Source of the DNA: Lepidodermella squamata
Taxonomy: Eukaryota > Animalia > Gastrotricha
Length of the DNA: 64,000 nucleotides
Assembly (NCBI GenBank): GCA_047495785.1
Contig: JBLDXI010000004.1
Span: 2,480,001 to 2,544,000 of the forward strand
Direction of reading: 5' to 3'
Position 1 is the stretch's first letter. Each line of letters starts with the position of its first letter. The translations under genes were made by a program, and so were the position numbers. The notes beneath the pieces are model-generated. The model was given only the letters and a program-made list of their open reading frames with translations. It was not told the DNA's origin and ran no database searches. Positions 4,215 through 59,143 of the stretch are shown one piece after another.

Positions 4215-4664
4215 CTAAGACATCAGATCTTTAAGCTTGATATCATTCATAATGGACCCGTCATTTGTGAAATCGAGGAGAATTTCAAGCTTATTGCGAT
4301 TTTTTGCCAGCTCAGACAGGAAGTAAACAACATAAAAACCGCACGCCACACTTTTAGTGTGCTGAATTTCATGAGTGGAATACCAAATGTCGCGATTACT
4401 TCGCCTCTCAATGACTTCATTGGGACAAATGAACCCAAAGCTGTCGAAATAGATTATTTCCCTATCAGTTACCTGCATTCCTACCCAGTGCGTTCCTCCT
4501 CCAAAATCATCCAAGTTGATTACATAGTATCCATTTTTCAAATGTATAGGCAAGAGATGCCTGGGGTAACATCCATTGTACTTCTTCCCAACTCTCGAGT
4601 ACATCATTTTGTCAATATCCGAATTCGAAAGTGGGAAGAAGCGCCCTAGTTTTTTGACTCCCAT
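4215..4664 (-). CDS. Adenain-like (C5) maturation cysteine protease
   Basis: VINLD..GTHWV, YFDSFG, IQ....ACGFY (His-Asp-Gln-Cys catalytic residues). Confidence 0.93.
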   Translation of the reverse strand: MGVKKLGRFFPLSNSDIDKMMYSRVGKKYNGCYPRHLLPIHLKNGYYVINLDDFGGGTHWVGMQVTDREIIYFDSFGFICPNEVIERRSNRDIWYSTHEIQHTKSVACGFYVVYFLSELAKNRNKLEILLDFTNDGSIMNDIKLKDLMS

Positions 4665-5275
4665 GGTAAATACACTCCATTTCCCTTATTCGCCTTGAAC
4701 AATGTAGGTAAAAATGTCCCTAGCAGGCTAGCAACTAGTGGAACAACGAATGAGCCACCCTTTTGCTCAATATCGCGATCAATCGAAAGTTTACTGCCCA
4801 GTGGCAATAAATTCTTATTTTCTAACATATCGACCATTTTGACTAGTTCATTCAAATCCTCTTTTGGAACTGATAGTTGTACGTTGGTCTCGTTTACGCC
4901 CTTCCCCGCTAATTTGTTACCGATCGCGTTGGTTGCGCCATTTATCAGCCCTGATACTGCACTCAGGGCCAAAGGTGCAGCAATCGTTGCGGCTTTTGCA
5001 AGTATGGGCAGGATGGGAAGTAGGCCGCCTGATTGGTTTTTCTTCAGTTGTGATAAACTAAGCTTCAATTGAACACCGGTATCGTTGGCTTTGTGCTTCT
5101 CTACTTTGTTTATTTGAGTTTGGGTAAGCATCAACTTGCGTAAATTTTCGTTTTGGTGAATAACCTGTTTGCTAAATTTAAGTGTTATTGACTTTTTGTT
5201 CTTCACCGCACCCTGGAGTTTCTCAAGCTGACTATCCGTCAGGGGCAATTCGTATTCGAAATACTTATGGCTCAT
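4646..5275 (-). CDS. Virion core protein precursor (adenovirus pX/pVII-like)
   Basis: SGGLLPILPILA and KGGSFVVPLVASLLG motifs; GxG/GG protease-type sites; basic N-terminus. Confidence 0.7.
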   Translation of the reverse strand: MSHKYFEYELPLTDSQLEKLQGAVKNKKSITLKFSKQVIHQNENLRKLMLTQTQINKVEKHKANDTGVQLKLSLSQLKKNQSGGLLPILPILAKAATIAAPLALSAVSGLINGATNAIGNKLAGKGVNETNVQLSVPKEDLNELVKMVDMLENKNLLPLGSKLSIDRDIEQKGGSFVVPLVASLLGTFLPTLFKANKGNGVYLPWESKN

Positions 5276-5300: not shown

Positions 5301-6680
5301 TTAGACGCTGGTAAGACTAATGTCAACAGAGTCATGCTTGTAGTTGAAGCATATCTCCTTTTCCCTTTCAATGAACGAATAAATTACAAGAGGCTTATTC
5401 ACCGCACCGACCGTCGCTTTGAATACTACAGAAACAGTGTTATCTGCTCGAGAGTTGTAAATGGAAGTAGCATCTACGTCGTCCAAGCAAAAGCAAAGAA
5501 TTCTGTACAAGTTGCAGAATTCCATGTACGAAATCTGACATCCCGTATTCAGACTTTCCCTATCGCTGTTCTGGTGCATATTCTGTTTTATGTAATTGTA
5601 TAACCGGTGAGCTTTCAGCTTAGCAAAAGAAACATTGGATTCATTAAAGGCTTCTTTGTTATTAATCAAAAGGGAATATGAAGTAACGTTCCACGTGTTA
5701 TATATCTGCGTGAGTTTCTTCGGATATTCCTCGTCTGAGTAATCGGGGCAAAGAACAATATAAACCCAATTGGGTTTCCTTATTTCAGTGCTGATTGTGT
5801 ACTGAATATTCGTGGTATTAGCAGCAAATTGACAGGACTGATATGGATCAATCGATATCCATTTATGAATTTTAGTGAATCCCTCGTTGAACTTTTTCAT
5901 TATTGAAAGTTTCTGTTGGTTCATGAGCGTTACTTCCGGGATGTACATATTAGCCCGATTGAAATAATAAGTTAATCCTTCAGCTGTATCTTTATCAGCC
6001 GCGGCAATCACATAAACCAAAGGTCGATTATAGCTTGGGGTGAGAATAATCCTAAATCGAGACTTCGTGAAAATTCCGTGATATGAATTGAAAAAGGGCA
6101 AATCTTTCAGATATAAAGTGACGGTGGCCTCAGCAGATTTAACATAACTGCTTCGCGTTATCAAACCCTTGTTAGCTGCAGCTTTCGAAGCATCGAAAGT
6201 GTCAGCCGTCACATCAGCAATTAGCGTTGTGCTTCCCAAAGCCAACGGGCAGTCTTTCGAAAACAACACTTCTTCCCCTAAACTATTGGCGTACTCAGGA
6301 CTCCATTTCAAAAGGAAATTGATGTTGGCCCAATGTTCGAGGAACCGCAGCTCTTCGATTTTGTGATCCGAATCCGATATTTGAACTTCAATATTGTCAA
6401 ACAGGCTCAACACGTGATTCCGAATGGCATACTTGTCAGTATTCACGAACGCGGCTCCATTCTTCCTTTTAATTTGCAATTGAAACTCCAAGTACCCCTC
6501 TCTGACTAGTAAATAATTGTCTTTTAGGTTGTAGCTGGACAATATTAATTTCGAGGGTTGTGAATTTTGATCTTGAGTGAAATTCTGTGCTGGCGTTTCC
6601 GTCCATGTCTTTTTCTCAAAGACCCGATCTTGAATTTCAGTAGTCTCGAAAATGTTATTGACGATCTCTTGTTGAAGCAT
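5301..6680 (-). CDS. Major capsid protein (double jelly roll), intact
   Basis: 459 aa, beta-rich; SLFDNIEVQI, YIPEV, RKPNWVYIV; position in the morphogenesis block. Confidence 0.85.
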   Translation of the reverse strand: MLQQEIVNNIFETTEIQDRVFEKKTWTETPAQNFTQDQNSQPSKLILSSYNLKDNYLLVREGYLEFQLQIKRKNGAAFVNTDKYAIRNHVLSLFDNIEVQISDSDHKIEELRFLEHWANINFLLKWSPEYANSLGEEVLFSKDCPLALGSTTLIADVTADTFDASKAAANKGLITRSSYVKSAEATVTLYLKDLPFFNSYHGIFTKSRFRIILTPSYNRPLVYVIAAADKDTAEGLTYYFNRANMYIPEVTLMNQQKLSIMKKFNEGFTKIHKWISIDPYQSCQFAANTTNIQYTISTEIRKPNWVYIVLCPDYSDEEYPKKLTQIYNTWNVTSYSLLINNKEAFNESNVSFAKLKAHRLYNYIKQNMHQNSDRESLNTGCQISYMEFCNLYRILCFCLDDVDATSIYNSRADNTVSVVFKATVGAVNKPLVIYSFIEREKEICFNYKHDSVDISLTSV

Positions 6681-9639: not shown

Positions 9640-10340
9640 ATCAGATTCGCCGACAAAAATTCCCGTATAATTTGCTCTAAGCTTCAGCGATTTATGCTTT
9701 ATCACGCTGTCTATTATAAAAGAACCGTGATTATTATTGGACGAAACGCTCAATTCGTACTTTTTCAGGAACCCAGGCTTTTCTATTTCTGCTGCATAAA
9801 TTCTGTGAATTGTTTGCAGTTCGCGTCCATCATTCAGCTTTTTCAAAACAATAAACTGCGCATTGTCGCGAATTATTTTCGGAATTTTGAAATATGACTG
9901 ACTCAAATAAACCACGGAGCAATTGTACTTTCGCGACCTGATGTAGAGATCGCCGATGTATTTCTCTTGGTTTTTAGCATTTTCCAAACAAATGTCATCA
10001 AAGACATACAAGTGCTGATACTTCTTGTCAAGCTTATCAAGGGGCACGACATCCGCAATATCAGTGGAAAAGTGGATAAGTGACTCGTTTACCCCTTTCA
10101 TTTTCAACTCGGCTTCTTTAGCTTTCTGCAAATTTATCAAAAACTGGTATTTGTCTTCATCCAAGGTTTTAGAGTAAATGTGCAGCTTATGAAAAACAGA
10201 ATGATATTGAGCAAATCATTAGTTTTCCCGCTATTACTTGGACCGATAATAATTGTTCGGAAACAATGCTGCGGGTAAAAAGGGGAAATATTGAGTGGCG
10301 TAGACTCGCTTTTTGGAATTATTTCATCAAAATTGATCAT
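9625..10340 (-). pseudogene. A32-like packaging ATPase, frameshifted
   Basis: Walker A GPSNSGKT, Walker B YVFDD, SRKYNCS, LSQSYF; 7-bp deletion near 10200 relative to B. Confidence 0.92.
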
Positions 10341-10351
10341 TTTAATTCAGG

Positions 10352-10365
10352 TTAGAAATTTCTAA
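10352..10365. promoter_or_regulatory. Palindromic candidate bidirectional late promoter TTAGAAATTTCTAA
   Basis: Perfect palindrome between the divergent ATPase and PLA2-integrase genes; conserved in B at 29773-29788. Confidence 0.6.
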
Positions 10366-10386: not shown

Positions 10387-12160
10387 ATGTTCGACGGAAT
10401 TATCAATAACTTGCCGGTAGAATTGCATCTTCCCTCTTACCCGGCCAAAGGCGAGCATCGTCCCAACGGATCATTCAACAACACGCAGAAATACAGTTAC
10501 GCTGGGCCAGGTACAAATTTCGTCCAGCGCATGAAGGAAGGATATAAGGGAATCAATGATTTGGACGAAGCAGCTAAAACTCATGACTACTACTATTGGA
10601 AATTCAAAGATCGTGAAATGCGGACAAGAGCAGACAGACTTCTAGCCGAAGAAGCTTTCAAGATAGCCAACGACGATTCTAAAAACGGATACGAGAGAGC
10701 CATGGCTGCCTTCGTTTTCAAAACCTTTCACGAAGGAGGCTTAGCCGATAGATTCCATGGAGGCCGAGTGCCTACAGGATACGAGCTTTCCATTCGGGAA
10801 GGCGACTTCCATGACGGTCAAGGGCTGACGGGCCATGAGCTTCCGCCTCAAGAACGCGAGTGCTGCGGAGAAGGATACGAATTGCGGCAAAGGAAACCTG
10901 TGGATTATACTGGAACAAAATATATCGGCGAGGTTCCGCAACCAAAACGATCAAGGAAAAAAGCAGAAAGCAGTGCCAAAACAACGCAAGCAGTCCCAGC
11001 GTCGAAAAAAGAGACGGATGCAGATCAAAGCTTAAGCAAAGTAAAATTCCACGTTCTGTCCGAGGAACTTCACAAACCGGCCCGGAAGCATTTTCCCCGC
11101 AGGCGAGTGTATATTCACGACATCGACGAAACCTGGGGCATGGATATCGTGTTTCTGAGCGATTTATCCGAAGAAAATAATCAGCATAAGTATTTACTCA
11201 CGATTATAGATTGCTTTTCCAAATATGCGTGGGCTGTCGCACTTAAGAGCAAGGATGCGAAAAATGTTTTTGATGCATTTTTGTCTGTGGTCCGAGAAAG
11301 CAACAGGAAGCCCAAAAATATGTGGGTAGATCAAGGCAGTGAATTTTACAATGCTGTGTTCACGAAATGGCTAAAAGCTAATAATGTTAACAGGCAGGGT
11401 GCGAATTACAGGGGTGCTGGGGTGTCGCGACACCCCAGCTCGGGGACCTTAATCAGAGGAAGGTTGAAAAAACCCACAGGGGGGACCCTTTGGTTTCTTC
11501 GGCTGGGTCTTAGAAAACAAGTAGAAAACACCTCAGCTCCCAGATCCTACTTCGCACACTGTTAACAGGTATTCGACTTATGAGAATTTTCACAATCCCA
11601 TAATAGAAAGGTTCAACCGAACTTTGAAAACCAAGATGTGGAAAAGGTTCACACTGGACAACACCCGTAACTGGGTTGGCATGCTCGATAGCTTGGTCAG
11701 TGATTATAATAATTCTCTGCATCGGTCGATAGGAATGACTCCCATCGAGGCCAGCGATCCCAAAAACCACAACAAAGTCCATTCTAGGCTGAATCCCCCG
11801 GAACGAAAAGAAAAATTGGAAAAGCCGAAATTTGCGCTGGGTGACGTGATTAGGATAAGCCGCGTAAAAGGCGCATTCGAAAAAGGGTATCACCCTTCAT
11901 GGAGCGAAGAACTATTGCGAGTTGTAAAAATAAATGACACATATCCGAGAACATACCAGATAGAAGCAATGGACGGCGAGCCTGTTTTCGGTAGTTTTTA
12001 CGAGCAAGAAATGCAAAAATCGAAACAGCAGGTAGATGACGTGTATAGAGTTGAGAAAATTTTGGATAGGAAGAAAGTCAAAGGAAAAGAGTTGGTTTTA
12101 ATAAAATGGTCGGGTTATGACAAACCCACATGGGAAAATGCAGAAAATGTTATTGATTAA
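10387..12160 (+). pseudogene. PLA2-retroviral-like integrase-chromodomain fusion, interrupted by a MITE
   Basis: YAGPGT...DEAAKTHDYYY (parvovirus-type PLA2); WGMD, IDCFSKYAW, VDQGSEF, IERFNRTLK (DDE core); YRVEKIL...LIKWSGYD..TWE (chromodomain); frame restored by removing 11395-11569. Confidence 0.92.
11395..11561. mobile_element. 167-bp hAT-like MITE
   Basis: 8-bp TSD TTAACAGG; TIR CAGGGTGCGAA / TTCGCACACTG; related copies at ~49175 and ~58100. Confidence 0.9.
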
Positions 12161-12827: not shown

Positions 12828-15800
12828 ATGCTTAGAAAAGAACAGAAAATCCCTCATCCCGTGGCTCCCCACAGGCAAATCATAGTTAATGGAACAGCGT
12901 TCACCAAGTTTTTGAGTCAAAACTATTACTATGACAAAAGACGAAAAGTCTTGAAAGAAGGAGTAAAGCTTCCCGATGGATCCGTAATTCCTGTCGATTC
13001 ACCCAAGTTACGCCGTATGCTGAAAACTGGTAGTTATTTTCATGATAGACAAAATAGGAAACTGATGGAGTACGCCAATAATAATACGATAGGTACCGTT
13101 TTCGACCCAGAAAATGGTGCAGAAATCCTAACCGGTAGTCAAAGATACGAAGAAATAAAGAAAAATAACTATGTTTTAAAAGGGCGAGGATTCGTCCAAA
13201 TCCCCGTTCGGAGGGCCGAATCAGTCATTAACCCCACAACAAATCGCCCAATAAAGATTGGAGGCGCGGCATTTAACCGGCTGATCCGCGCGGGTTACAT
13301 TTACATTGCTTCAATGAATAGTTTCGAAAAATCAGATTACGTCCGCCAACTGCGACCAGATGACTTCGGCACTTTCGTAGAAGTCACGTCAATGCTCAAG
13401 CTGTTACCAATAGTGCAAGGCTTCGATTATTTGAAATACACCTCTGTGATACGCCCGAAAGTGATTGATGAATATCGACGACAATTGAATTCTCTCGGCC
13501 CAGTTAAAGTCGTGCTTCATGCTGAGGTGGAATTCATTCACAAAATAACGAGGAAGTGCATCACAATTTTTAAATGGAGCTCTTCAAGCAACGCGGCACC
13601 TTTAGTCACAAATGCGGCGGACATTCCCGACGTTGTCGACGGCCTCTTTTCCATGCTTGCAGACGGCATTCGAGACTTTGAAGAGAGAGGTAGTCAGTTC
13701 GTATTTAATAAAATGGTTGACACAGATGTCAACACCTTCCGGTATCATCCGACTGCCGGAGGGAGCTACATTCCCACGCCGGATTACATCAAACGGAAAC
13801 ATGCTGTAGTCAACGTTAAAAACTCTGACGATAAATGCATTATTTGGAGTATTTTAGCCTGTAGGTACCCGCCAAAAGATCACGTGGACCGAGTCAGCAA
13901 TTACAGGTGGTGTTTGAATAGTGTGCAATACGATGGTATAGATTTTCCCATAAAATATGAAGATATCGATAAATTAGAGGATTCAAATGTTTTAAATTTG
14001 AATATAATTGAATATGATGATGAAAAACGAACATTCTCCCCCTTTTACATATCCAAACGGAGTTATCACGAGGAAATTAACCTGTTGCGTACAACTGATA
14101 ACGAAAAGGCCCACTATAGCTGGATCAAAAACCCTAGTGCGTTGTTTGCATCCACTAACAAGAACGAACACGCGCGTTTTTGGTGTTTCAAGTGTTTTAC
14201 CAGCTTCACTTCAGAAGAAGTGAGACAAAACCACATTCTGGATAACAAATGCGTAGGTTTCGAAAAAAATATACGAGTGCATTTTCCAAAAAGCAATACA
14301 ATTAAATTTAATAACGTATACAAACAGCTTCGCTTGCCTTTTGCTTTTTATTGCGACATCGAGTGCTTTCTTGTTGACATTAACAAAAACCACGGGACTA
14401 ACTCGATTGCGTATCAACACCACCGGGCAAATTCGTTCGGGTGCTATTTCAAAAGTGACATCGCGTCACTTCCCTCGAGATACCAATCATTTGAAAACTG
14501 CGCCAGCTTCCTTGAGTATCTTTTGTCTAAGACAACGCACCTAATCAAGTTTCTCACTTCAACAAATGTTCCAATGAATCTGAGCGAAACCGAGGAAAGG
14601 TCCTTCAGGTCGGCGTCAATTTGCCATATTTGCAGCTGCCCGGTTTCCGAAGACGAAAAAGTTCGAGACCATGATCATCTAACAGGCAGATTCCGTGGTG
14701 CAGCTCATAATTCGTGTAATTTAGAGTACAGCTACAAAAAAACGGCAATACCCGTGATTTTCCATAATTTGAAAGGGTATGACAGTCACTTGATTCTGAA
14801 ATCTCTGGGGGAAGTGCTTGTAGAGTTCAACAAGGGTAGGTTGAAGAAAAATCTCAAGCCGCTGAAAATCAACATTATTGCGCAGAGTTCCGAAAAATTC
14901 ATCGGTTTCTCGGTTGGCCGGTTGCGATTCATCGACAGTTTTAATTTCATGTCCACTGGCCTGGACCAAATGGTTGAGAATCTGAAGAAGTCCGGGGGGA
15001 AATTTGAACATTTGAATTCGAACTTTTCTGAATTCACAGATGAACAGCGATGTCTGCTGTTGAAAAAAGGGGTTTATCCTTACGATTATATGAATTCCCC
15101 CAGGAGGTTCCAAGAAACTATGTTGCCAGCTAAGGAACATTTCTCGAGCAAGTTAAAATCGAACAGCTTGGTGACCGATGACATCGGCAGAATAGAAGAT
15201 GCGCCTGTTCCGATCTCCGACGAGGAATACAATCACGCTAAAAACGTGTGGGATAAATTAAAATGCAAAACCATGAAGGATTATCACGATGCATATTTGA
15301 AAACTGATGTCCTTCTCCTAGCAGATTGCTTCGAAAATTTCAGAAGTATTTCGATGAAGAGTTACTCGCTGGATCCTGCTCATTTTTTCACCACTCCAGG
15401 GCTAACATGGGACGCCGGAAAAAAGTACACCAAAGCCTCTATCGGTATTTTGAATAACAATGAAATGTTGGAATTTGTCGAAAAAAGTGTGCGTGGGGGC
15501 ATAAGTGGCGTAGTTCTTAGGCACGCGAAAGCTAACAATCCTTACATGAAAAATTATGACAAGTCAATGCCACACTCTTATATCACATGCTTAGACGCAA
15601 ATAACCTGTATGGCTGGGCAGCTTCTCAAATGCTTCCGATCGGAGACTTCGTGTTTGTCGATGCCTCTGTTTTCACCCAAGACTACATTTTGCGCCTGAG
15701 CGATGAAGCTGAATTTGGATACATGCTCTCAATCGACGCAATGTATCCGCGTAGACTTCACGACGCTCATGACGCGTTTCCATTTTTCCCAGAACATACG

Positions 15801-17405
15801 GAATGCGCTCCAAGCCCCTACATGGAATCAATGATGGCCAAATTGAAGATGCCTAATCCAGATAATGGACCTAAGCTAACTCAGAATTTATGCCACAAGA
15901 CGAACTACGTGGTTCATTATAGAAATCTGAAGCAAGCTCTGGAGGCAGGCCTGATTTTGACGAAAGTCCACAAAGTTCTCCGCTTTAGACAGTCCAAATG
16001 GTTGGAGCCCTATATCGACTTGAACACATCGATGAGGAAGAACGCGAAAACGGACTTTGACAAGGACTTTTACAAGCTGATGAACAATTCGATCTTTGGA
16101 AAGACATGTGAAAATGTCAAAAAGCGGATTGACATCAAGCTGGCGACAACCCCATGCGAGCTGCAAAAGCTGATTAACAGACCGAATTTTAAAAATGCGA
16201 CTAGGGTTAGTGAGAGCTTATACTCAGTAGACATGGCTAGAACCTCCATACTTTACGATAAGCCCATAATTGTCGGAGCGTGTATTTTAGAATTGAGTAA
16301 GCTTTTGATGTATGATTTTCACTATAAAGTAATTAAAGCCCAATACGGAGACAAGGCCAAATTATTATTCTTTGACACAGATTCGCTTTGTTACCACATC
16401 GAAACCGACGATATATACGCGGACATGGAAAATTGGAAAGAACATCTCGATTGCTCGGCGTACCCGTTGAACCATAGGCTGCATTCCATGGAAAACAACA
16501 AGGTAATTGGGAAATTCAAGGACGTGTCGACCGGAGTGATTGAAGTAACGGGTGCAGATGGCGCGAAAAGGCCAGAAAATATTCTGGAACAAATAACTGA
16601 ATTCGTCGGCCATCGTTCAAAATCGCTAGCGTTTACTACGGAGGTTGTCAGCGCTGTTACTGTTGAAAGGAACTCACCCAACCAAGTAGTAAAAGCCAAA
16701 GGAGTTGTTAAGCATTGTATCGGAAATATAATTAATTTTCAAAACTATAAGAGTTCCTTATTAAACAGTGAAATTGAAAGGGTTCGATTTCGGCAAATTC
16801 GATCCGTGAATCACGAGTTATACAGCATTCAAAGTACCAAAGTTGCCCTTTGTCCTTATGACGATAAAAGGTGGGTTAAAGCTGACGGGTTCACGTCATT
16901 CGCCCACGGCCATTTCCGGATAGCCAAGGAGCATGAACAATTTAGGGTGGATCAGCTTGGTAAGAAATTGGACACGTTGAAGTCCTTATCGAGTGCATGC
17001 CAATATTCACGCATCAAATTGAAAAATATTTTATACGATAATTTGAGTAAAGAAAAATGTACGGACATCGCTTCATTTTGCCGAAATTTTGATGCAACTT
17101 TCAAAAAAATTGGGCACGAACTCGAAGAATTAGACAACTTGTGGTTTCAATCGGGGCAACGCCCAGCCGACTATCTACCTCAGGCGCATGTTATAGCCGA
17201 CATAGAAGACAGAGAGGTACTTGAAACTTGGCTGAAAAATAACTCCACACACGATTCTTCTTTAGAATGCTTGCTTCGCGAAGGATTGTTTCCCAAAAAG
17301 ATTCCAAAAATAGCGGTAAATGAATCATCTTTGAAAGAACCACTCTCGGTTATTGCGAAACGTGCACAAACGCGGGCCAAAGAGAAGGAGGGCTCGGGTC
17401 TTTAA
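12828..17405 (+). CDS. polB: Protein-primed family B DNA polymerase (pPolB), intact, with EndoVII-like insert
   Basis: Exo YCDIEC, FHNLKGYD; motif A LDANNLYG, motif B KLMNNSIFGK, motif C DTDS; CHIC...RDHDHLTGRFRGAAHNSCN; DDKR. Confidence 0.97.
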   Translation: MLRKEQKIPHPVAPHRQIIVNGTAFTKFLSQNYYYDKRRKVLKEGVKLPDGSVIPVDSPKLRRMLKTGSYFHDRQNRKLMEYANNNTIGTVFDPENGAEILTGSQRYEEIKKNNYVLKGRGFVQIPVRRAESVINPTTNRPIKIGGAAFNRLIRAGYIYIASMNSFEKSDYVRQLRPDDFGTFVEVTSMLKLLPIVQGFDYLKYTSVIRPKVIDEYRRQLNSLGPVKVVLHAEVEFIHKITRKCITIFKWSSSSNAAPLVTNAADIPDVVDGLFSMLADGIRDFEERGSQFVFNKMVDTDVNTFRYHPTAGGSYIPTPDYIKRKHAVVNVKNSDDKCIIWSILACRYPPKDHVDRVSNYRWCLNSVQYDGIDFPIKYEDIDKLEDSNVLNLNIIEYDDEKRTFSPFYISKRSYHEEINLLRTTDNEKAHYSWIKNPSALFASTNKNEHARFWCFKCFTSFTSEEVRQNHILDNKCVGFEKNIRVHFPKSNTIKFNNVYKQLRLPFAFYCDIECFLVDINKNHGTNSIAYQHHRANSFGCYFKSDIASLPSRYQSFENCASFLEYLLSKTTHLIKFLTSTNVPMNLSETEERSFRSASICHICSCPVSEDEKVRDHDHLTGRFRGAAHNSCNLEYSYKKTAIPVIFHNLKGYDSHLILKSLGEVLVEFNKGRLKKNLKPLKINIIAQSSEKFIGFSVGRLRFIDSFNFMSTGLDQMVENLKKSGGKFEHLNSNFSEFTDEQRCLLLKKGVYPYDYMNSPRRFQETMLPAKEHFSSKLKSNSLVTDDIGRIEDAPVPISDEEYNHAKNVWDKLKCKTMKDYHDAYLKTDVLLLADCFENFRSISMKSYSLDPAHFFTTPGLTWDAGKKYTKASIGILNNNEMLEFVEKSVRGGISGVVLRHAKANNPYMKNYDKSMPHSYITCLDANNLYGWAASQMLPIGDFVFVDASVFTQDYILRLSDEAEFGYMLSIDAMYPRRLHDAHDAFPFFPEHTECAPSPYMESMMAKLKMPNPDNGPKLTQNLCHKTNYVVHYRNLKQALEAGLILTKVHKVLRFRQSKWLEPYIDLNTSMRKNAKTDFDKDFYKLMNNSIFGKTCENVKKRIDIKLATTPCELQKLINRPNFKNATRVSESLYSVDMARTSILYDKPIIVGACILELSKLLMYDFHYKVIKAQYGDKAKLLFFDTDSLCYHIETDDIYADMENWKEHLDCSAYPLNHRLHSMENNKVIGKFKDVSTGVIEVTGADGAKRPENILEQITEFVGHRSKSLAFTTEVVSAVTVERNSPNQVVKAKGVVKHCIGNIINFQNYKSSLLNSEIERVRFRQIRSVNHELYSIQSTKVALCPYDDKRWVKADGFTSFAHGHFRIAKEHEQFRVDQLGKKLDTLKSLSSACQYSRIKLKNILYDNLSKEKCTDIASFCRNFDATFKKIGHELEELDNLWFQSGQRPADYLPQAHVIADIEDREVLETWLKNNSTHDSSLECLLREGLFPKKIPKIAVNESSLKEPLSVIAKRAQTRAKEKEGSGL

Positions 17406-23329: not shown

Positions 23330-23901
23330 CTCCGTTATACCTCTTGTACCCTCCTTATCAAAATACTTTCCCCAGAATTTTTCCACAATTTCCCCACAGT
23401 TTCCCCAGAGTTTTTCAGAATTTCCCCCAAATTCACCAGCCCTCGCCCACCTCTCACCTCTCACCCTTACCCTTACCCATACACCTTTCCCTACCCCTAC
23501 CCCTACCCCCTACCCTCTGTTATACCTCTTGTACGCTCCCTTTCGAAATAATTTCCCCAGCAATTTGTTCCCCAAATTTTCCCCCAAATTTATTTACTCC
23601 CTTTCTCTCCTTTGCACCCTCATTATCTCTTCGCTTTTTATAAATTCACCATTTATTTTTCCCCTAATTGCCAATTTCCCCCGCCCCACCCTCAATTTTT
23701 CAAAAAGGGTGTATGCCGAATCACTCGGTAAATACATCATATTCACAGCCATACACTCTTTTTCGATAACCCCCAGTTTTTTCAAAACCCAATACTCCCC
23801 CCTTGGAAATACACTCACACCATATAGCCCTATAAATCATAATTTCTTTGATTATTTCACTTTCCTTGGGTTTGGTCTAGGACCGGCTATTGTACTCTAC
23901 T
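23330..23901 (-). repeat. Right terminal inverted repeat of A (572 bp)
   Basis: Reverse complement of 340-911; the ORF track shows mirror-image ORFs at both ends. Confidence 0.95.
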
Positions 23902-24334
23902 GACAGTCTTTCGAAAACAACACTTCTCCCCCTAAACTATTGGCGTAATCAGGACTCCATTTCAAAAGAAAATTGATGTTCGCCCAATGTTCGAGGAACC
24001 GCAGCTCCTCGATTTTGTGATCTGAATCCGATATTTGAACTTCAATATTGTCAAACAGGCTCAACACGTGATTCCGAATGGCATACTTGTCAGTATTCAC
24101 GAACGCGGCTCCATTCTTCCTTTTAATTTGCAAATTAAACTCCAAGTACCCCTCTCTGACTAGTAAATAATTGTCTTTTAGGTTGTAGCTGGAAAATATT
24201 AATTTCGAGGGTTGTGAATTTTGATCTTGAGTGAAATTCTGTGCTGGCGTTTCCGTCCATGTCTTTTTCTCAAAGACCCGATCTTGAATTTCAGTAGTCT
24301 CGAAGAGGTTATTGACAATCTCTTGTTGAAGCAT
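23902..24334 (-). pseudogene. Element B major capsid gene, 5' part, disrupted by A
   Basis: Near-identical to the A MCP N-terminus up to FSKDC. Confidence 0.95.
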
Positions 24335-29051: not shown

Positions 29052-29762
29052 TTACCGAGGTTCACCGTAAAATATTCCTGTATAATTTGCCCTTAGTTTC
29101 AGCGACTTGTGTTTTATTACGCTGTCAATTATAAAAGACCCGTGATTTTTATACGACGAAACGCATAGTTCATACTTTTTCATGAATTCATCCCTTCCGA
29201 TTTCTCCAGCGTGAATTCTGTGAATTGTCTTAAGTTCCCGCCCGTCAGTCAGCTTTTTCAAAACGATAAACTGCGCATTGTCACGGATTATTTTGGGAAT
29301 TTTAAAATATGACTGGCTCAAATAAGCCGCGGAGCAATTGTACTTTCGCGACCTAATAAACAAATCGCCAATGTATTTCTCTTGGCTCTTAGCATTTTCC
29401 AGGCAAATATCATCAAAGACATACAAGTGCTGATACTTCTTGTCGAGCTTATCAAGGGGCATGACATCCGCTATATCTGTGGAAAATTGGATGAGTGACT
29501 CGTTTATTCCTTTCATTTTCAACTCGGCTTCTTTAGCTTTCTGCAAATTTATCAAGAACTGGTATTTGTCTTCATCCAAAGTTTTAGAGTAAATGAACAG
29601 CTTATGAAAAACAGAATTATGAATGATATTGAGCAGATCATTAGTTTTACCGGTATTGCTTGGACCGATAATAATTGTTCGGAAACAATGCTGCGGGTAA
29701 AAAGGAGAGATATTTAGCGGTGAAGACTCGCTTTTAGGGATTATTAAATCAAAATTGATCAT
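29052..29762 (-). CDS. B A32-like packaging ATPase, intact
   Basis: GPSNTGKT, YVFDD, SRKYNCS, LSQSYF. Confidence 0.93.
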   Translation of the reverse strand: MINFDLIIPKSESSPLNISPFYPQHCFRTIIIGPSNTGKTNDLLNIIHNSVFHKLFIYSKTLDEDKYQFLINLQKAKEAELKMKGINESLIQFSTDIADVMPLDKLDKKYQHLYVFDDICLENAKSQEKYIGDLFIRSRKYNCSAAYLSQSYFKIPKIIRDNAQFIVLKKLTDGRELKTIHRIHAGEIGRDEFMKKYELCVSSYKNHGSFIIDSVIKHKSLKLRANYTGIFYGEPR

Positions 29763-29808
29763 TTACATTCCAATTAGAAATTTCTAATGCTGGTATAAAC
29801 ATCGTGAA

Positions 29809-31342
29809 ATGTTCGACGGAATTATCAACAACTTGCCAATAGAATTGCATCTCCCCTCTTACCCGTTGAAAGGCGAGTATCGTCCCAACGGATCATTCAA
29901 CAACACGCAGAAGTATAGTTACGCTGGACCAGGTACAAAGTTTATACAGCGAATGAAGGAAGGATATGAAGGCATCAATGATCTGGACAAGGCAGCTAAA
30001 ATTCATGACTATTACTACTGGAAATACAAAGATCGAGAAATGCGGACGAGAGCAGACAGAATTCTAGCCGATGAAGCGTTTAAGATAGCCAACGACAATT
30101 CGAAAAGCGGATACGAGAGAGCCATGGCGGCGTTTGTATACAAAACCTTTCACGAGGGAGGCCTAGCCGATAAATTCCATGGAGGCCGAATGCCTACGGG
30201 ATACGAGTGCCATGGTGAAGGATACGAATTGCGGCAACGAAAGCCTGTGGATTATACCGCAACAAAATACATCGGTGAAGTTTCAAAACCGAAGAGACAG
30301 CGGAAGAAGTCAGCAGGAAACGCTGAAAAACTCAAGCTTCAATCAGATAAGGACAGCACGATAGAGAAGATGAATAGTGGAACGAGTAAAGTGAATTTTC
30401 CCATTTTAGCTGATGAGTTACACAAACCGGCTAGAAAGAGATTCCCGCGGCGCAGAGTAATTCTTCACGATGTGGACGAAACATGGGGTATGGATCTGTG
30501 CTTCATGAATAGCCGACGATAACGAGGGCTATAAATACTTGTTAACTGTTATTGATTGCTTTTCCAAATATGCGTGGGCTGTTCCGTTGAAAACTAAAGA
30601 CGCTAAAACTGTATTTGATGCTTTCACAACTATTGTCGACAGGAGTAAAAGAAAACCGAAGAATATTTGGGTTGATGAAGGTAGTGAATTCTATAACTCA
30701 ACTTTCACCAAATGGCTAAAAGCAAACAAAGTCACCAGGTATTCAACGTATGAAAACTTCCATAACCCAATCATAGAGCGATTTAATAGAACACTAAAAA
30801 CAATGATGTGGAAGAGGTTTACTCTTGAAAATACTCGAAAGTGGATCGATATGATAGATTCCTTAGTGGATGAATATAACAATAAGAAACATAGATCCAT
30901 TAATATGACCCCATCCGAAGCAGTGAATCCGATCAATAAAGATAGAGTATTACGAAATCTCTACCCTAACCCCCCGCCAAAATTGAAAAGGCCAAAATTT
31001 AAGCTAAACGACATTGTCAGGATTAGTAGAATTAAAGAAATTTTCGAAAAGGGTTTTCATCCTAATTGGTCTGAAGAATTGTTAAGAATAGTGAAGATCA
31101 ACGATACATACCCTAGAACGTATAAATTGAGAGCATTAGATGGTGAGGAAGTAGTCGGAAGTTTCTATGAGCAAGAGTTACTGAAATCTAAAATCAGCGA
31201 AAATGATTTATACGACAGCAGCATTCATCGCGTTGAGAAGATATTACAAAAGAAAACAGTCAAAGGTAAGGAAATGGTGTTAATTAAATGGGCGGGCTAT
31301 GATCATCCCACGTGGGAGAAAGCCGAAAACCTTATAGATTGA
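29809..31342 (+). pseudogene. B PLA2-integrase-chromodomain fusion, frameshifted near 30510
   Basis: PLA2 in frame with LHKPARKRFPRRRV...WGMD; ADDNEGYKYLLTVIDCFSK continues in another frame (small deletion). Confidence 0.88.
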
Positions 31343-48354: not shown

Positions 48355-49174
48355 ACGCCACTCAAGCTTAGCAAGAGGCGCCCGGGGTTTCTACGAAATA
48401 GCTGTTGTCGAGCCTCCACCGGTGAGCACGTTTAGCCACAGAGATGCAGTTTAAAACATCCCCCCTACAAGACGGGGATACAATCCCGGTGATAATAACA
48501 GAAGACTTTAATTATTTTGCTATTTAATAGCCATTGCATAGGGAATATGCATTTTGAATACTTTGAACTTTTCTATTGATACAGTTGATTTTTCAGGTTT
48601 TGACTGAATAACTGGTTCAGATTAATTTGTAGTAAATTATTTCCTCAAATTTACAGATTCCTATTCGAAATAGAAAATATGGCTGCGCGAAGTTCATGCT
48701 TGAACTTGTTAGCCATCTCTCTAGAAAGACAATTTCCGCTGAGTGTCGTTCCATTATTGATTGCTGCCTGTCCCCAAATAAGCAACTAACGCAAAGTCAA
48801 TTCATTCCATGAGCGCGAGGGAGGGAAGGGTAAAGCGTTTCGATTCGCTCCCCGCATCGGATCAATATATAAGACTGCTAGCTTGGGAGAACGTGTTTAC
48901 GCTGACATCATCAACATTATAACTGAATCACAGAACGGAAGGGTAATTTAAAGGACATTCTGCGAATACCGGGAATACAGTATACAGATAAGACGGACTA
49001 GCAAAAAGATGCAGGATTAAGAGTCTTGTATTTTTTATATGAGGATTTTGCCAAGAAATGGCCTGGGATATGAGCTGTGAATCACATGACTCCAAATCCC
49101 CTTGGAATCATGAATCAATACCTCTTCAAGAAAGCGATTCTGATGTGCCTCAAGCCTTATCAAACCCGTGTTTC

Positions 49175-49320
49175 CAGTGTGCGAAGTAGGATCCGGGAGC
49201 CGAGGTGTTTTCTATTTGTTTTCTAGGACTCAGGAGCCTAAGAAACGAAAGGGTGCCCATGTGGTTTTTTCAGCCTTCCTCTGGTTGGAGTCTCAGAGCT
49301 GGGGTATCACAACGCCTCGG
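49175..49320 (-). mobile_element. Degenerate copy of the hAT-like MITE
   Basis: CAGTGTGCGAAGTAGGATC..GAGGTGTTTTCTA.TTGTTTTCTA matches the reverse complement of 11395-11561. Confidence 0.75.
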
Positions 49321-55065: not shown

Positions 55066-58000
55066 ATGATGATTTTCCTACTTACTTTTGTGACCTCTCT
55101 CATAACACCAGCGGAATTAGCCTGCCCAGCATCTTCTTGCACCATAACGCGTAAGAGTAAACAATTTACTAATTTGAATTCGGTTTTACCTTTCGTCATT
55201 TACAGCGACTTGCCCTCCCGGCTACACTTACAGTGCATGTTACGACAGTTGCTACCTGTGGAGCTCGTAAGTTTCGCTCAAAAAATGAAAATTATCTGTA
55301 CCTTTGTTACCAAGATTTTAGCTCGAACTTTTGTTATTGAATATTTTTGAATTAGTAGAACCCTGATTAATCAGGGAACCATCAAAGTGTTAACCGATAC
55401 CGTCTTTCTCTCAAATGAACCTAAATCCTAAATTCAATCACAGGGATACTATGTTTTATATGGCGGCTCTGCAACAATGCATGGCAAACGGGGCTCATTT
55501 CTTCGTTCCAAACACCGAAGAAGAGTTCAAGTACGTGATGGGTCTGGCGAATCAAAGTGCCTTCTACTGGTTCGGCCTGCAAGACTGGGCGTCACGTGGG
55601 GCTGGCAATAACGCTGGGCAATGGGTCTACGGCAACAATTATACAAACGACCCAGATGGGAAGTGGTACTTCATGGACGAGACACCCACTTACATCACAG
55701 CTGCGAATTTAGTACCCCAACCCAATTCGACTTTGATCGATCCTGGGCCTTACAGCTGGCTACCTTGGCTCGGCAATCCTGGAAGTGGCACTTTTGCCGC
55801 CGTGCTGGCTTACTCGCCTTTTTGGGGAGCTCTTGCACTCAACACCTATCAACTCAAACCTAACTACATCTGCGAGGTATCCAAGGTCTGCTCAACCTGC
55901 AGAGCTGGTTTTACCCGATACCTATCAAATTGTTACTTGTATCGAAACGACTCGGCAGACTACAACAGTGCGGCTGGGATATGTAGTTCGACCAATTACG
56001 GAGCTGGTACAACCCTTTGGACGCCACGGCGTTGGCATTCGATCATCTACGCGAGATTTCTAGCCGCGGCTGTTGGTTCGCCTCTAATGATTGGGCTAAC
56101 GTCGTTGAATCCGCCTTATTCTTGGCAATGGGCTGATAACGTAACTGTTTCGCTGTCTGATAATTTCGATATGCCGCCGTTTACGATTCGATATGGCCCG
56201 TATTACGATTCTGTCATTCGAATCGTGCCTGATACGAATTTAGCGAGCTTATCGACTGTGTATGAAGACTTTTCAAATTCGACCTCAGGCTGGCACGGGA
56301 TTTACGTAGCTGAGTTCCAGAATTGGTTGAATCGATATGTTTGCCAACAACCTGCTACATCGAGATTAGCGTCAACCACTCTTGCGCCGTCAACTACTGC
56401 AAGCTCCTTAACAACAGTGACTACTTCACTTACAGTAATCACGGAAGCTTCGTCAGCCAAATTATCGACCACAACGACAGCTGGGAGTGGTGGCTGTAAG
56501 TTTGTTTACCTCACATGAGCTCACGTGTTCAGGACAAATGACCGTAAACTTTGAAATTGCAGCACCGGTTTATAAATGACCAGCTCTAAAATTGAACATT
56601 TGACATCCTCAGAAGTTCGCATGGCAAGGTGCAAAACTCCCAAATAAACCACAGGGGGATCCTTTGGTCTTAAAAATCGGGTCAATTCCAAGTTCGAGAA
56701 TTCTACTTCTACTTACTCGAGAAAAGCCGAGTATGAATATCTAGAATATTTCTTCTTCAAGTAAGAGAGAATACAGACATTTCGCCGAACCCCACTTTCA
56801 CTTGTAAGGGTTGAATCCCTGAATATAAAAAATTTCATAGATGTTGAGATAACACTTTGTAGGCTATTAAACGTGATGGGGGATAGAGGATAGGGCTACT
56901 ATTTCAGTGCCATCACTCTAATTTACTGATATTTTATTTGTGTCGAACAGTTTCTTGCGCCAACTGCACTAGTCCACACCAGCAATGCCTGCCCAACAAC
57001 ACATGTACGTGCCTAGCTCCTCCGCAACAAACGTGTCAGCCGCCTAGCAATTGCAGCATTCTGGTGATTCGGCCTGTTTTTCAGATCGCAGGCTGCAACG
57101 CTCTTTGCCAGCAAAATGGCTTGGCATATAGCTATCCTGAGCCAGATCCTGAACTGAACCAAGACTTCCAGTGGAGGAAGATAAGCGGCCTCACAGGAAG
57201 CTGCACTTCATTTGAATCAGTCAGCATGCCGAACTACGTTCTACGTCACTCCAACTTCAGGCTCCAGATTACTTGGAACAATGGCGATCCGTGGCTCGCT
57301 CAGGATGCGACGTTCTGTGAGAGGCAACTAGGTTCCGGGGTTGGCTATGAGGCTGTTAACTTTCAGGGGTGTTTCATCTATGTCGATTCAAACAATGAAA
57401 TCCATCTTCGCCAAAATGACTCTTCAGCGGATTTCGAGTTGCGGATCGCATTTTATGAAACAGCTTTGGGTAGGTTACTTGAGATTTACTTTCTCAGATT
57501 GACTGTGCTTTTCCACTACAGGCACGCCTTCAACTACTGCGAGCACCTCAACAACTTTGACTCCTTCAACAGCGGTAACTACGGGATCTTCGTCACAACC
57601 CTCGTCTGTATCAACAGGAAGGCCTACATCCACTTCAAGCTTCTCCTCAACTTCTTCAACGATGGTAACTGCAAGAGCTACGTCAGGTCCCTCGTCTTCT
57701 TCAACTCCAAATGCGACGATGAGCACTTCGGCTACATTGAATTCGCAGAATACAACAGGGCTATTGAGCACAACGATTGCTTCCACGGGAACTTCGTCAG
57801 ATTCTCTGTCGATCTCTACAACCACAAGTACTTCAACGATACTGGCTTCAATACAGAATACAACAGAGTCATCAACCACAACTAAGGCTGTGAGCTACTG
57901 TGGAGATGGCATAGTGCAAGAAAATCTCAACGAGGAGTGTGATGATGGGAATACGCTTTCGAATGATGGCTGCGATTCGGCTTGCAAATTTGAAGGTAGG

Positions 58001-59143
58001 GGCAGGTTTTCGAGATTATATTAACGCTCAGTAAAGAACGGCCCACTTAAATGTGTCGCTCGATTTCTAACTTTTAACTTATCAAATCCACTTGAAGCCC
58101 AGGGAGCGAAGTACAGGGATGCTGGGTGTCGCGACACCCCAACTCGAGGAAGGCTGAAAAAACCACAGGGGGCGGGGGGCTTTTGGTTTCTTTAGCTGGG
58201 TCCTAGAAAACAAGTAGAAAACACCTCAGCTCCCAGATTCAACTTCGCACAAGTGGTGGCACACTATTTTAAGCCCTGTTCATGATCTCCCCCATGGCGA
58301 TTCATCTTTTTTTAGCATTTTCGCTGAATATCTAATTTTTCGTATTACCGATGTATAACTCCTCAGATAACTTCGAAGCACTGTAGGTTTTGTGTTTGAA
58401 AATTATATTATTTTCGCTTTCTATTGTTTACAGCGCTGAATAACAAGGTAGATGTATATTTTGCGATCGATTGCTCTCGTTCGATTCCTATGGCGCACCT
58501 TCCAACGCTTAATGGTCTTTTAAAAGTTCTTACGAAACAAATTGCTCTCGTATCCACTTCGATGCAGGTATGCCCCGCATAGTAATAAAATCACAGACAA
58601 AAAACATATGATTTATTCAGCAGCTTGGAGTGCTCGTGTTTGGTGGTCGAGTAGCTGGAATGCGTGTCCCGACTCTAGCAAAAGGCGCATCTCAATTGAC
58701 AGACTCGATTTCGATTGATTCTTTCTATAACAAACTCACATACTTCGAAGGTCCAGGGAATGTCTCAAATGCGCTCAGCAGACTGATGGATCCTACGATT
58801 TTCAGCTCAAAAGGTCGGGCAATTTCTGTGTTAAATTTGAAAAATCTTAACTTGATTTTCAGATGGATCGCGTATTGATGCATTATCCGTTGGTGTAATT
58901 TTCACGGGATCCCTGAGCGCTGACGTTTCAGCTCTGGAAGAACAATTAAGCTACCTTGCGTTGTCACGCCGTCCTGTAATTTTGGTTCAATTGCCATCTA
59001 GCCACAAAAATCAGATTTCGGGGCTCAATAAACAATCAGCAAGATTTACTGCGCGTGGCTTCTCTGTAATTAAAATTGAAAACTGGAAGACTTTGATTGC
59101 ATATGCTCCAGCCATATTGCACGAACTTCAAACAATTACGTGA
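55066..59143 (+). CDS. Secreted multidomain protein: two C-type lectin domains, S/T tract, Cys-rich region, AbfB, mucin tract, Myxococcus-type Cys-rich repeat, VWA (multi-exon)
   Basis: Signal peptide MMIFLLTFV; YWFGL..YICE and CYLY..MIGL..YVCQ; [22 protein letters not shown]; [21 protein letters not shown]; [12 protein letters not shown] (MIDAS motif) at ~58451. Confidence 0.8.
58100..58254 (+). mobile_element. Intronic copy of the hAT-like MITE
   Basis: Colinear with 11395-11561. Confidence 0.85.

Follow-up and report, generated by a model that had tools for sequence, protein, structure and literature searches.

In-frame fusion of a parvovirus-type phospholipase A2 domain and an integrase in two gastrotrich Polinton elements, and its probable recoding counterparts in relatives

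The PLA2–integrase gene in two Polinton elements

The window analysed here, a 64-kb stretch of Lepidodermella squamata DNA, contains two related Polinton/Maverick elements, A and B. Element A (340–23901) lies within B, whose capsid gene it interrupts; part of B occupies 1–339, and B resumes after 23902. Polinton/Maverick elements are recognized by terminal inverted repeats and a target duplication in the accessible text of PMC8097293, and element A carries both: perfect repeats of 572 nt (340–911 and 23330–23901) and a 6-bp duplication (334–339 and 23902–23907), with AG...CT ends. Because the repeats are perfect and the duplication is intact, the insertion of A into B's capsid gene appears to have been recent. 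The rve (DDE) integrase of such elements was detected above the Pfam cut-off, and both window copies of its gene are broken.

Element A encodes a major capsid protein (5301–6680, minus strand) with 56% identity to a protein (P0227; P and L numbers are our labels for related proteins and loci) that passes the cut-off of the double jelly roll family PF21738. Two of the four capsid homologues scanned passed this cut-off, and the window capsid protein itself had no Pfam match. The divergent family-B DNA polymerase (12828–17405, plus strand; 1525 aa) carries the K...NS.FG and DTDS motifs and an endonuclease-VII-like insert, and was not matched by the Pfam DNA_pol_B_2 profile. The packaging ATPase gene (10340–9625, minus strand, with its ATG at 10340) is broken near 10200 relative to B; Pox_A32 scored above the cut-off in B (30.7 bits vs 22.8) and below it in the broken A copy. 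The capsid, 8961-homologue and integrase genes of element B are also broken. Two flanking ORFs with domains above the Pfam cut-off, a C-type lectin domain (55394–56518) and an arabinofuranosidase B (AbfB) domain (56887–57885), are perhaps host genes.

From the ATG at 10387, element A encodes PLA2 and an rve integrase in a single frame with no stop between them (PF08398, aa 35–98, 32.4 bits, cut-off 23.9; rve, aa 248–335, 52.1 bits, cut-off 32.6). The PLA2 part (10387–10728, plus strand) has its YAGPG loop at 10498 and the HD motif at 10582. It is followed by a linker (10729–11040, plus strand) containing HEGG and FHGG (10753–10764), a 75-nt stretch with DGQG that is present only in A, CGEG-YEL and a basic stretch; this linker is predicted to be disordered and to hold one or more protease sites. 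The N-terminal part of the integrase (11041–11394, plus strand) includes Pfam rve and the first two catalytic Asp residues (WGMD and WVD), and the C-terminal part (11562–12160, plus strand) contains the catalytic Glu in IERFNRT and a chromodomain at about 12044–12154. Since there is no Met between aa 106 and 252, an internal ATG cannot yield a complete integrase N-terminus.

The two integrase parts of A are separated by a 167-bp high-copy insertion (11395–11561) with short CAG...CTG inverted ends and an 8-bp duplication. We take it to be a hAT-type MITE-like element, and its sequence occurred at very high depth in public run X1. Sequences of this high-copy family also lie at about 49160–49233 and at 58196–58251 in the window, and other public contigs lack the insertion at 11395–11561.

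In element B, the corresponding gene (29809–31342, plus strand, with its ATG at 29809) keeps one frame from PLA2 (36 bits) through the integrase N-terminus (ELHKP...WGMD) as far as the first catalytic Asp, and is broken near 30510 by a frameshift resulting from a small deletion. Both genes encode the parvovirus-type PLA2 motifs (a YxGPG calcium loop and an HD catalytic motif with a downstream Asp) and end in a chromodomain above the Pfam cut-off. These results confirmed the proposal of the first-pass annotation that PLA2 continues in frame into the integrase N-terminus in both elements. As to the complete PLA2–integrase–chromodomain fusion that it described, all domains are present in A and B, but each copy is broken downstream, by the insertion in A and the frameshift in B, and neither contains the unbroken ORF. 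Public contigs from three of four runs (X1, X2 and X5, from two studies, with X1 possibly from the source sample) cross both break sites without the breaks and have a third linker length, again in frame.

Comparison of A and B over 114 codons of PLA2 gave a dN/dS of 0.14, indicating purifying selection; synonymous sites in the integrase were saturated. Identity between the two elements is 83–92% from the ATPase start through PLA2 and 51–75% from the linker onward. A recombination boundary, with the frame preserved, likely lies inside the linker at about 10880 and 30230 of the window.

Coupling of PLA2 to integrase in relatives

A protein search with aa 1–335 from element A, an unbroken stretch, returned 61 matches, 12 of which were unbroken and had both PLA2 and integrase domains; the best seven PLA2–integrase proteins shared 47–70% identity with the query. 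When PLA2 alone was searched among longer proteins, seven of the eight homologues found carried rve. On an integrase tree, the window pieces and nine database fusions formed one clade (SH-aLRT 99), which also included a protein called as a stand-alone integrase (P0015). Among the best 149 integrase representatives at 50% identity, Pfam identified seven PLA2–integrase fusions, two protease–integrase fusions and one reversed arrangement. The N-terminal extension was shorter than 80 aa in 133 of these 149, which suggests that PLA2 coupling is confined to a subgroup of Polintons. Most of the short forms had their own Met, and as most Polinton-type integrases are separate genes of this kind, the fusion appears dispensable for integration in general.

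Other arrangements were also seen. Three proteins (P0019, P0072 and P0074) are in-frame protease–integrase fusions with Gly-rich joints, and one (P0212) has the order integrase–chromo–PLA2. A tblastn search of the phage collection gave no match.

DNA searches supplied 84 loci for analysis: four were viral, and 80 were the best of 134 from metagenomes. Because PLA2 patterns were used to choose them and a fused protein to rank them, the set is biased towards loci where an integrase lies next to PLA2. Many of them encode a window-type polymerase (25–39% identity), ATPase, protease or penton. The three parvovirus PLA2 motifs considered were present in 87, 87 and 85 of the 89 coupled domains. PLA2 and integrase formed one ORF at seven loci and lay in separate frames at 64, and 13 loci had PLA2 only. 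In the survey for uninterrupted fusions that the first-pass annotation had recommended, the fusion was unbroken in 12 of 61 proteins and 7 of 84 loci, and 64 of 84 loci were split. The 13 PLA2-only loci included the four viral ones (L001–L004), where no integrase match was found, two that stop inside PLA2, and seven with a −1 or readthrough signal, recognized by eye, at the contig end.

The split followed a strict pattern. The integrase was in the −1 frame at 53 of the 64 loci, behind a single in-frame stop at ten, and in a separate gene with its own ATG at one (L084); no +1 arrangement was found. At all 53 −1 loci, the integrase ORF overlapped the end of PLA2, lacked a Met ahead of its domain and was accompanied by an in-register slippery heptamer, namely A AAA AAC (50 loci), T TTA AAC (two) or A AAA AAA (one). 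Not even a near-cognate start was present at 43 of them. By chance, any such heptamer would be expected at 6.1 loci, compared with 53 observed, and one of the two strict heptamers at 0.8 loci, compared with 52. A stem began 5–7 nt 3' of the heptamer at most −1 loci, and the 90 nt after the heptamer gave z < −2 at 43 of the 53, compared with none of 48 control segments. In two stem families picked by eye (16 and 23 of the 53 loci), compensatory changes occurred at 3 of 9 and 2 of 17 pairs, respectively; part of the stem conservation may be protein-driven, as the stems lie in coding sequence. At 90%, the −1 loci formed 30 clusters and the readthrough loci six.

At the ten readthrough loci, the stop and following codon were TGA-CTA (five), TAG-CAA (three), TGA-CTG (one) or TGA-CAA (one), all of which are contexts that favour readthrough. 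A Met was present in the head at three of these loci, and as a group they gave no signal for a stimulatory stem within 90 nt of the stop (one of the ten). The frames, the signals and their conservation are direct observations, and at the −1 loci they agree with those expected of programmed frameshifting, with heptamer, spacer, 3' stem (43 of 53) and a downstream ORF lacking a start. Read in this way, the sequences make it very probable that −1 frameshifting or readthrough joins PLA2 to integrase in these relatives.

The window linkers differ from this pattern. Neither A nor B has an in-register heptamer in the linker, and stem z scores there were −0.26, 0.54 and −0.65. A hidden frameshift in the window linker was thereby ruled out, and the window lineage appears to produce a constitutive 1:1 fusion. 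At the other end of the gene, the PLA2 ORF of most recoding relatives (among L005–L084) begins with a Cys-rich stretch resembling the DUF5679 zinc ribbon, for which P0014 and P0040 have Pfam matches; this N-terminus is absent from the window clade.

On the integrase tree (quick maximum-likelihood, unrooted), the fused, −1 and readthrough states were interleaved, and the fused state required between two changes, forced by well-supported branches, and seven. One −1 locus (L073) was sister to a readthrough locus (L008), and fused proteins were nested in the −1 clade. When 50 of the 137 other representatives were added, PLA2 coupling needed five to eight changes, and the window clade grouped with the −1 clade on this enlarged unrooted tree (support 92), in which a protein called as stand-alone (P0075) was sister to a frameshift locus (L017). 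The topology indicates that the PLA2–integrase link is retained while the mechanism changes; we make no claim about the order of events.

Linker sites, TCTA motifs and chained genes

Three linker sites, FHGGR, DGQG and CGEG, had been put forward as adenain-type xxGG/xxGxG sites. FHGGR is common to A and B, but DGQG occurs only in A, as the B linker is 75 nt shorter, and CGEG reads HGEG in B. The accessible text of PMC4246237 gives the adenain consensus as (M/I/L)XGG-X or (M/I/L)XGX-G, where the hyphen marks the cut, with Q or N tolerated at P4. The P4 residues of the three window sites are F, H and C, none of which is a strict adenain P4; six of eight close relatives do have a strict match. 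FHGG is the positional counterpart of (L/F)QG(K/G), which directly follows PLA2 in all eight aligned close relatives. In the window copies and these eight relatives, this QG/HG motif is separated from ELH by about 20 to 103 aa, always with the frame kept, and three related proteins (P0006, P0010 and P0012) have no Met in the linker.

Of 86 coupled sequences, 81 have a GxG or GG motif after PLA2 (53/53 −1 loci, 10/10 readthrough loci and 18/23 of the others), compared with 10 of 716 integrase windows, and four of the five misses have such a motif a few residues further on. A structure model of a related fusion (P0005; AlphaFold, mean pLDDT 64.5, 13 rows) contained a helical PLA2, an integrase core and a low-confidence linker (119–203, pLDDT <50). 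Foldseek matched this model to the integrases of MELD virus, mavirus and foamy virus; among the matches listed, foamy virus integrase was closest to the core in the PDB, and mavirus was second among viral structures. All matches listed for the fusion model were integrases or transposases, and none supported PLA2 structurally. A PDB sequence search with the PLA2 part gave no match.

We predict that the element's own protease cuts just after PLA2. Alternatively, the fusion might be packaged and never cut, with GxG serving only to cap the PLA2 fold at its C-terminus and the integrase active while tethered to PLA2 by a flexible linker. Such a role in the PLA2 fold may exist, since GxG also follows stand-alone PLA2 or PLA2X domains (9 of 11 PLA2-only loci, and P0064), and a permanently joined protein would agree with the missing P4 consensus in the window and with a predicted disordered linker that would let both domains act together. 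We nevertheless regard an uncut fusion as unlikely, since core proteins of element A have the same type of motif (four in the pX-like protein and two in the 7011 ORF; the capsid protein and the ATPase lack it), and tandem copies occur at the pX ends. Other fusions carry it N-terminal to PLA2 and at the joints of the protease with PLA2 or with integrase, and the adenain consensus of the close relatives described above likewise favours predicted cleavage.

The first-pass annotation correctly placed the start of the gene beside a TCTA palindrome. This palindrome, TTAGAAATTTCTAA (10352–10365), is made up of two TCTA motifs placed back to back; the ATPase (ATG at 10340, minus strand) and PLA2–integrase (ATG at 10387, plus strand) genes diverge from either side of it. 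The same palindrome occurs in B (29774–29787), between the ATPase (ATG at 29762, minus strand) and PLA2–integrase (ATG at 29809, plus strand) genes, and no further copy was found within the 64-kb window. In element A, TCTA lies about 10–27 nt before the ATG of all eight structural, packaging and PLA2–integrase genes and upstream of none of the six others, including the polymerase (PolB) and protease genes; the background was 83 of 1539 windows. The palindrome is likely a shared late-type promoter element for the ATPase and fusion genes. The mavirus late promoter sequence is reportedly TCTA, and we call the class late by analogy with mavirus and from the type of genes it precedes. TCTA preceded 14 of 70 related PLA2 genes, compared with 125 of 1248 background windows, which ruled it out as a family-wide promoter.

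The protease gene of element A is itself part of an overlapping pair. A pX-like core-protein gene (4646–5275, minus strand), so labelled because it resembles the C-terminal portion of PLA2X as published, overlaps at its 3' end, in the −1 frame, with an unbroken adenain/Ulp1-like cysteine protease gene (4215–4664, minus strand). The match of the protease to Pfam Peptidase_C5 fell below the cut-off (E 0.004), and its His, Asp and Cys motifs read HW, FDS and Q...CG. At the overlap (4580–4655, minus strand), a −1 frameshift signal is predicted: A AAA AAC at 4655–4649 is followed, after 6 nt, by a strong stem (z −4.54) that 1 of 200 shuffled sequences equalled in stability. The protease gene starts with an ATG of its own but lacks an upstream TCTA, and the missing TCTA is consistent with its being read from the pX mRNA via this signal. 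Among 13 relatives with a protease match, eight have a long upstream ORF and an in-register heptamer (T TTT TTA in seven and A AAA AAC in one). At three loci (L050, 2573–3490; L076, 5565–6479; L066, 842–1804), protease and PLA2 form one ORF entered from pX in the −1 frame; L050 and L076 have a second −1 signal from protease–PLA2 into integrase, and L066 ends earlier.

Comparison with known systems and a proposed route for the integrase

Supplementary file 2 of the Buck 2024 preprint (PMC11071296) contains two adintovirus entries named 'PLA2-Integrase' (Adinto15303 and Adinto6405). Both resemble the window in having PLA2 and integrase in frame in a Polinton-type element, and Adinto15303 starts like L038 and L058. 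In the accessible parts of this preprint, the fusion is named in the sequence list only (the main text has no match for PLA2), −1 frameshifts are raised only for penton and hexon–adenain, and we found neither a PLA2-to-integrase frameshift or readthrough nor a mechanism. Its protein list also contains four 'PLA2X-Adenain' entries and one 'Adenain-PLA2', names under which pX–protease and protease–PLA2 products had been annotated before. Adintovirus PLA2X is described as PLA2 plus a pX-like C-terminal domain in one gene (Starrett 2021, PMC8502044), and the accessible text of that paper has no match for 'fused', 'fusion' or 'slippery'. The PLA2 domain of the window is the same, but the window gene falls outside this definition, as PLA2 lacks the pX tail and continues through a linker into the integrase, and the pX-like gene is separate and tied to the protease. 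The earlier remark that PLA2X is usually a separate gene therefore holds, although a fusion had already been named for the two adintoviruses above.

In Geisler 2018, PLA2 and integrase are separate ORFs, and no PLA2–integrase fusion was found in the accessible parts of that paper, Yutin 2013 or Yutin 2015. The main texts of Jeong 2023, Krupovic 2024, Stephens 2024, Barreat 2021 and Bellas 2023, as far as accessible, had no match for PLA2 or phospholipase. A full-text search of the accessible papers and supplements returned no report of frameshifting or readthrough coupling PLA2 to integrase. The in-frame fusion had thus been named elsewhere without comment, and the new part is the three interchangeable coupling devices.

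Gag-Pol is made by one −1 shift in HIV-1, by UAG readthrough in MLV and by two −1 shifts in HTLV and MMTV, and it is in-frame in many Ty1/copia elements. The elements described here resemble retroviral and LTR-retrotransposon Gag-Pol in that the integrase is appended to a predicted virion protein by a −1 shift, readthrough or in-frame fusion. The two-shift Gag-Pro-Pol arrangement is paralleled by L050 and L076, and the closeness of the P0005 integrase fold to foamy virus integrase among the PDB matches listed is a further likeness. Unlike Gag-Pol, these are dsDNA elements with a jelly-roll capsid, an adenain-like cysteine protease and no reverse transcriptase; the carrier is a predicted entry lipase rather than a capsid protein, and cleavage here is predicted from motifs. 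The initial comparison with Gag-Pol draws support from the −1 sites with stems and the readthrough-type stops of relatives, from GxG/GG in 81/86 coupled sequences and from TCTA before 8/8 structural, packaging and PLA2–integrase genes of element A, but the window itself encodes a 1:1 fusion.

The PLA2 resembles the parvovirus VP1-unique domain (PF08398) in its YxGPG loop, and GP[GF]T and DxxxxxHDxxY are each present in 87 of 89 coupled domains. The parvovirus domain is carried on the capsid protein, whereas in the window elements it is joined to the integrase, with activity predicted from motifs. A role as virion lipases for entry has been proposed for Polinton PLA2s (PMC4642659, accessible text). 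Mavirus has an rve integrase that is stated to be packaged, a late promoter before its genes and capsid maturation by a cysteine protease (accessible part of a review, PMC6723459); it differs in encoding its integrase and its lipase separately, the latter belonging to a different family (PMC3671162, accessible part).

In this Polinton subgroup, a parvovirus-type PLA2 carries the integrase behind it as a C-terminal extension, in frame in the window lineage and likely through a programmed −1 frameshift or stop readthrough in most relatives found. The fusion protein would likely be made together with the virion genes and packaged, and it would be cut by the protease of the element. Once released, PLA2 would help the particle cross the membrane during entry, and the integrase–chromodomain would accompany the genome and insert it with no need for newly made protein. 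Recoding relatives would carry many PLA2 and few integrase molecules per particle, and the window lineage a fixed 1:1 ratio. We infer packaging via the N-terminal partner and release by the protease from motifs, promoter class and analogy, and we consider the mechanism as a whole, from production with the virion genes to release, reasonably probable. A broader proposal is that a branch of Polintons runs a whole gag-pro-pol programme on dsDNA, in which one or two −1 shifts, readthrough or fusion link the core protein pX, the protease, PLA2 and the integrase into a chain, the devices interchange, and the polyprotein loads protease and integrase in set amounts; for this proposal, we hold the case for and against to be evenly balanced.

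The coupling might instead set only the timing and dose of integrase in the cell, with PLA2 acting in exit or nuclear access and not in endosomal escape. Recoding would reduce integrase output whatever its destination, and most Polinton integrases are unfused, both of which suit this explanation. However, several lineages, including that of the window, have lost recoding yet kept a 1:1 fusion, which indicates that a low integrase dose is dispensable and that the physical link is what was kept. The coupling partners, PLA2 or protease, are moreover predicted virion proteins, and we consider control of timing and dose alone to be quite improbable, slightly more so than an uncut fusion. That decay or assembly produced the fusion by accident, with a lost stop in dead copies and −1 overlaps arising from homopolymer errors or overlapping genes, is largely refuted by conservation and very improbable: both window copies are broken, the commonest heptamer contains a run of six A and L006 resembles a slip of a −1 element, but PLA2 is under purifying selection (dN/dS 0.14), unbroken fusions exist at 47–59% identity, three linker lengths among host copies are all in frame, −1 exceeds +1 by 53 to 0 with no Met, a conserved spacer and covarying stems, and homopolymer errors cannot explain readthrough stops.

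How Polintons carry their integrase to a new host genome was not established in the literature searched. If packaging and release of the fusion are correct, short recoding signals would operate in eukaryotic dsDNA elements, substrates of their proteases would be predicted, and gene callers would cut such integrases and proteases short or overlook where they really start, as in P0075. A Polinton subgroup would then hitch its integrase to a virion protein, as retroviruses do.
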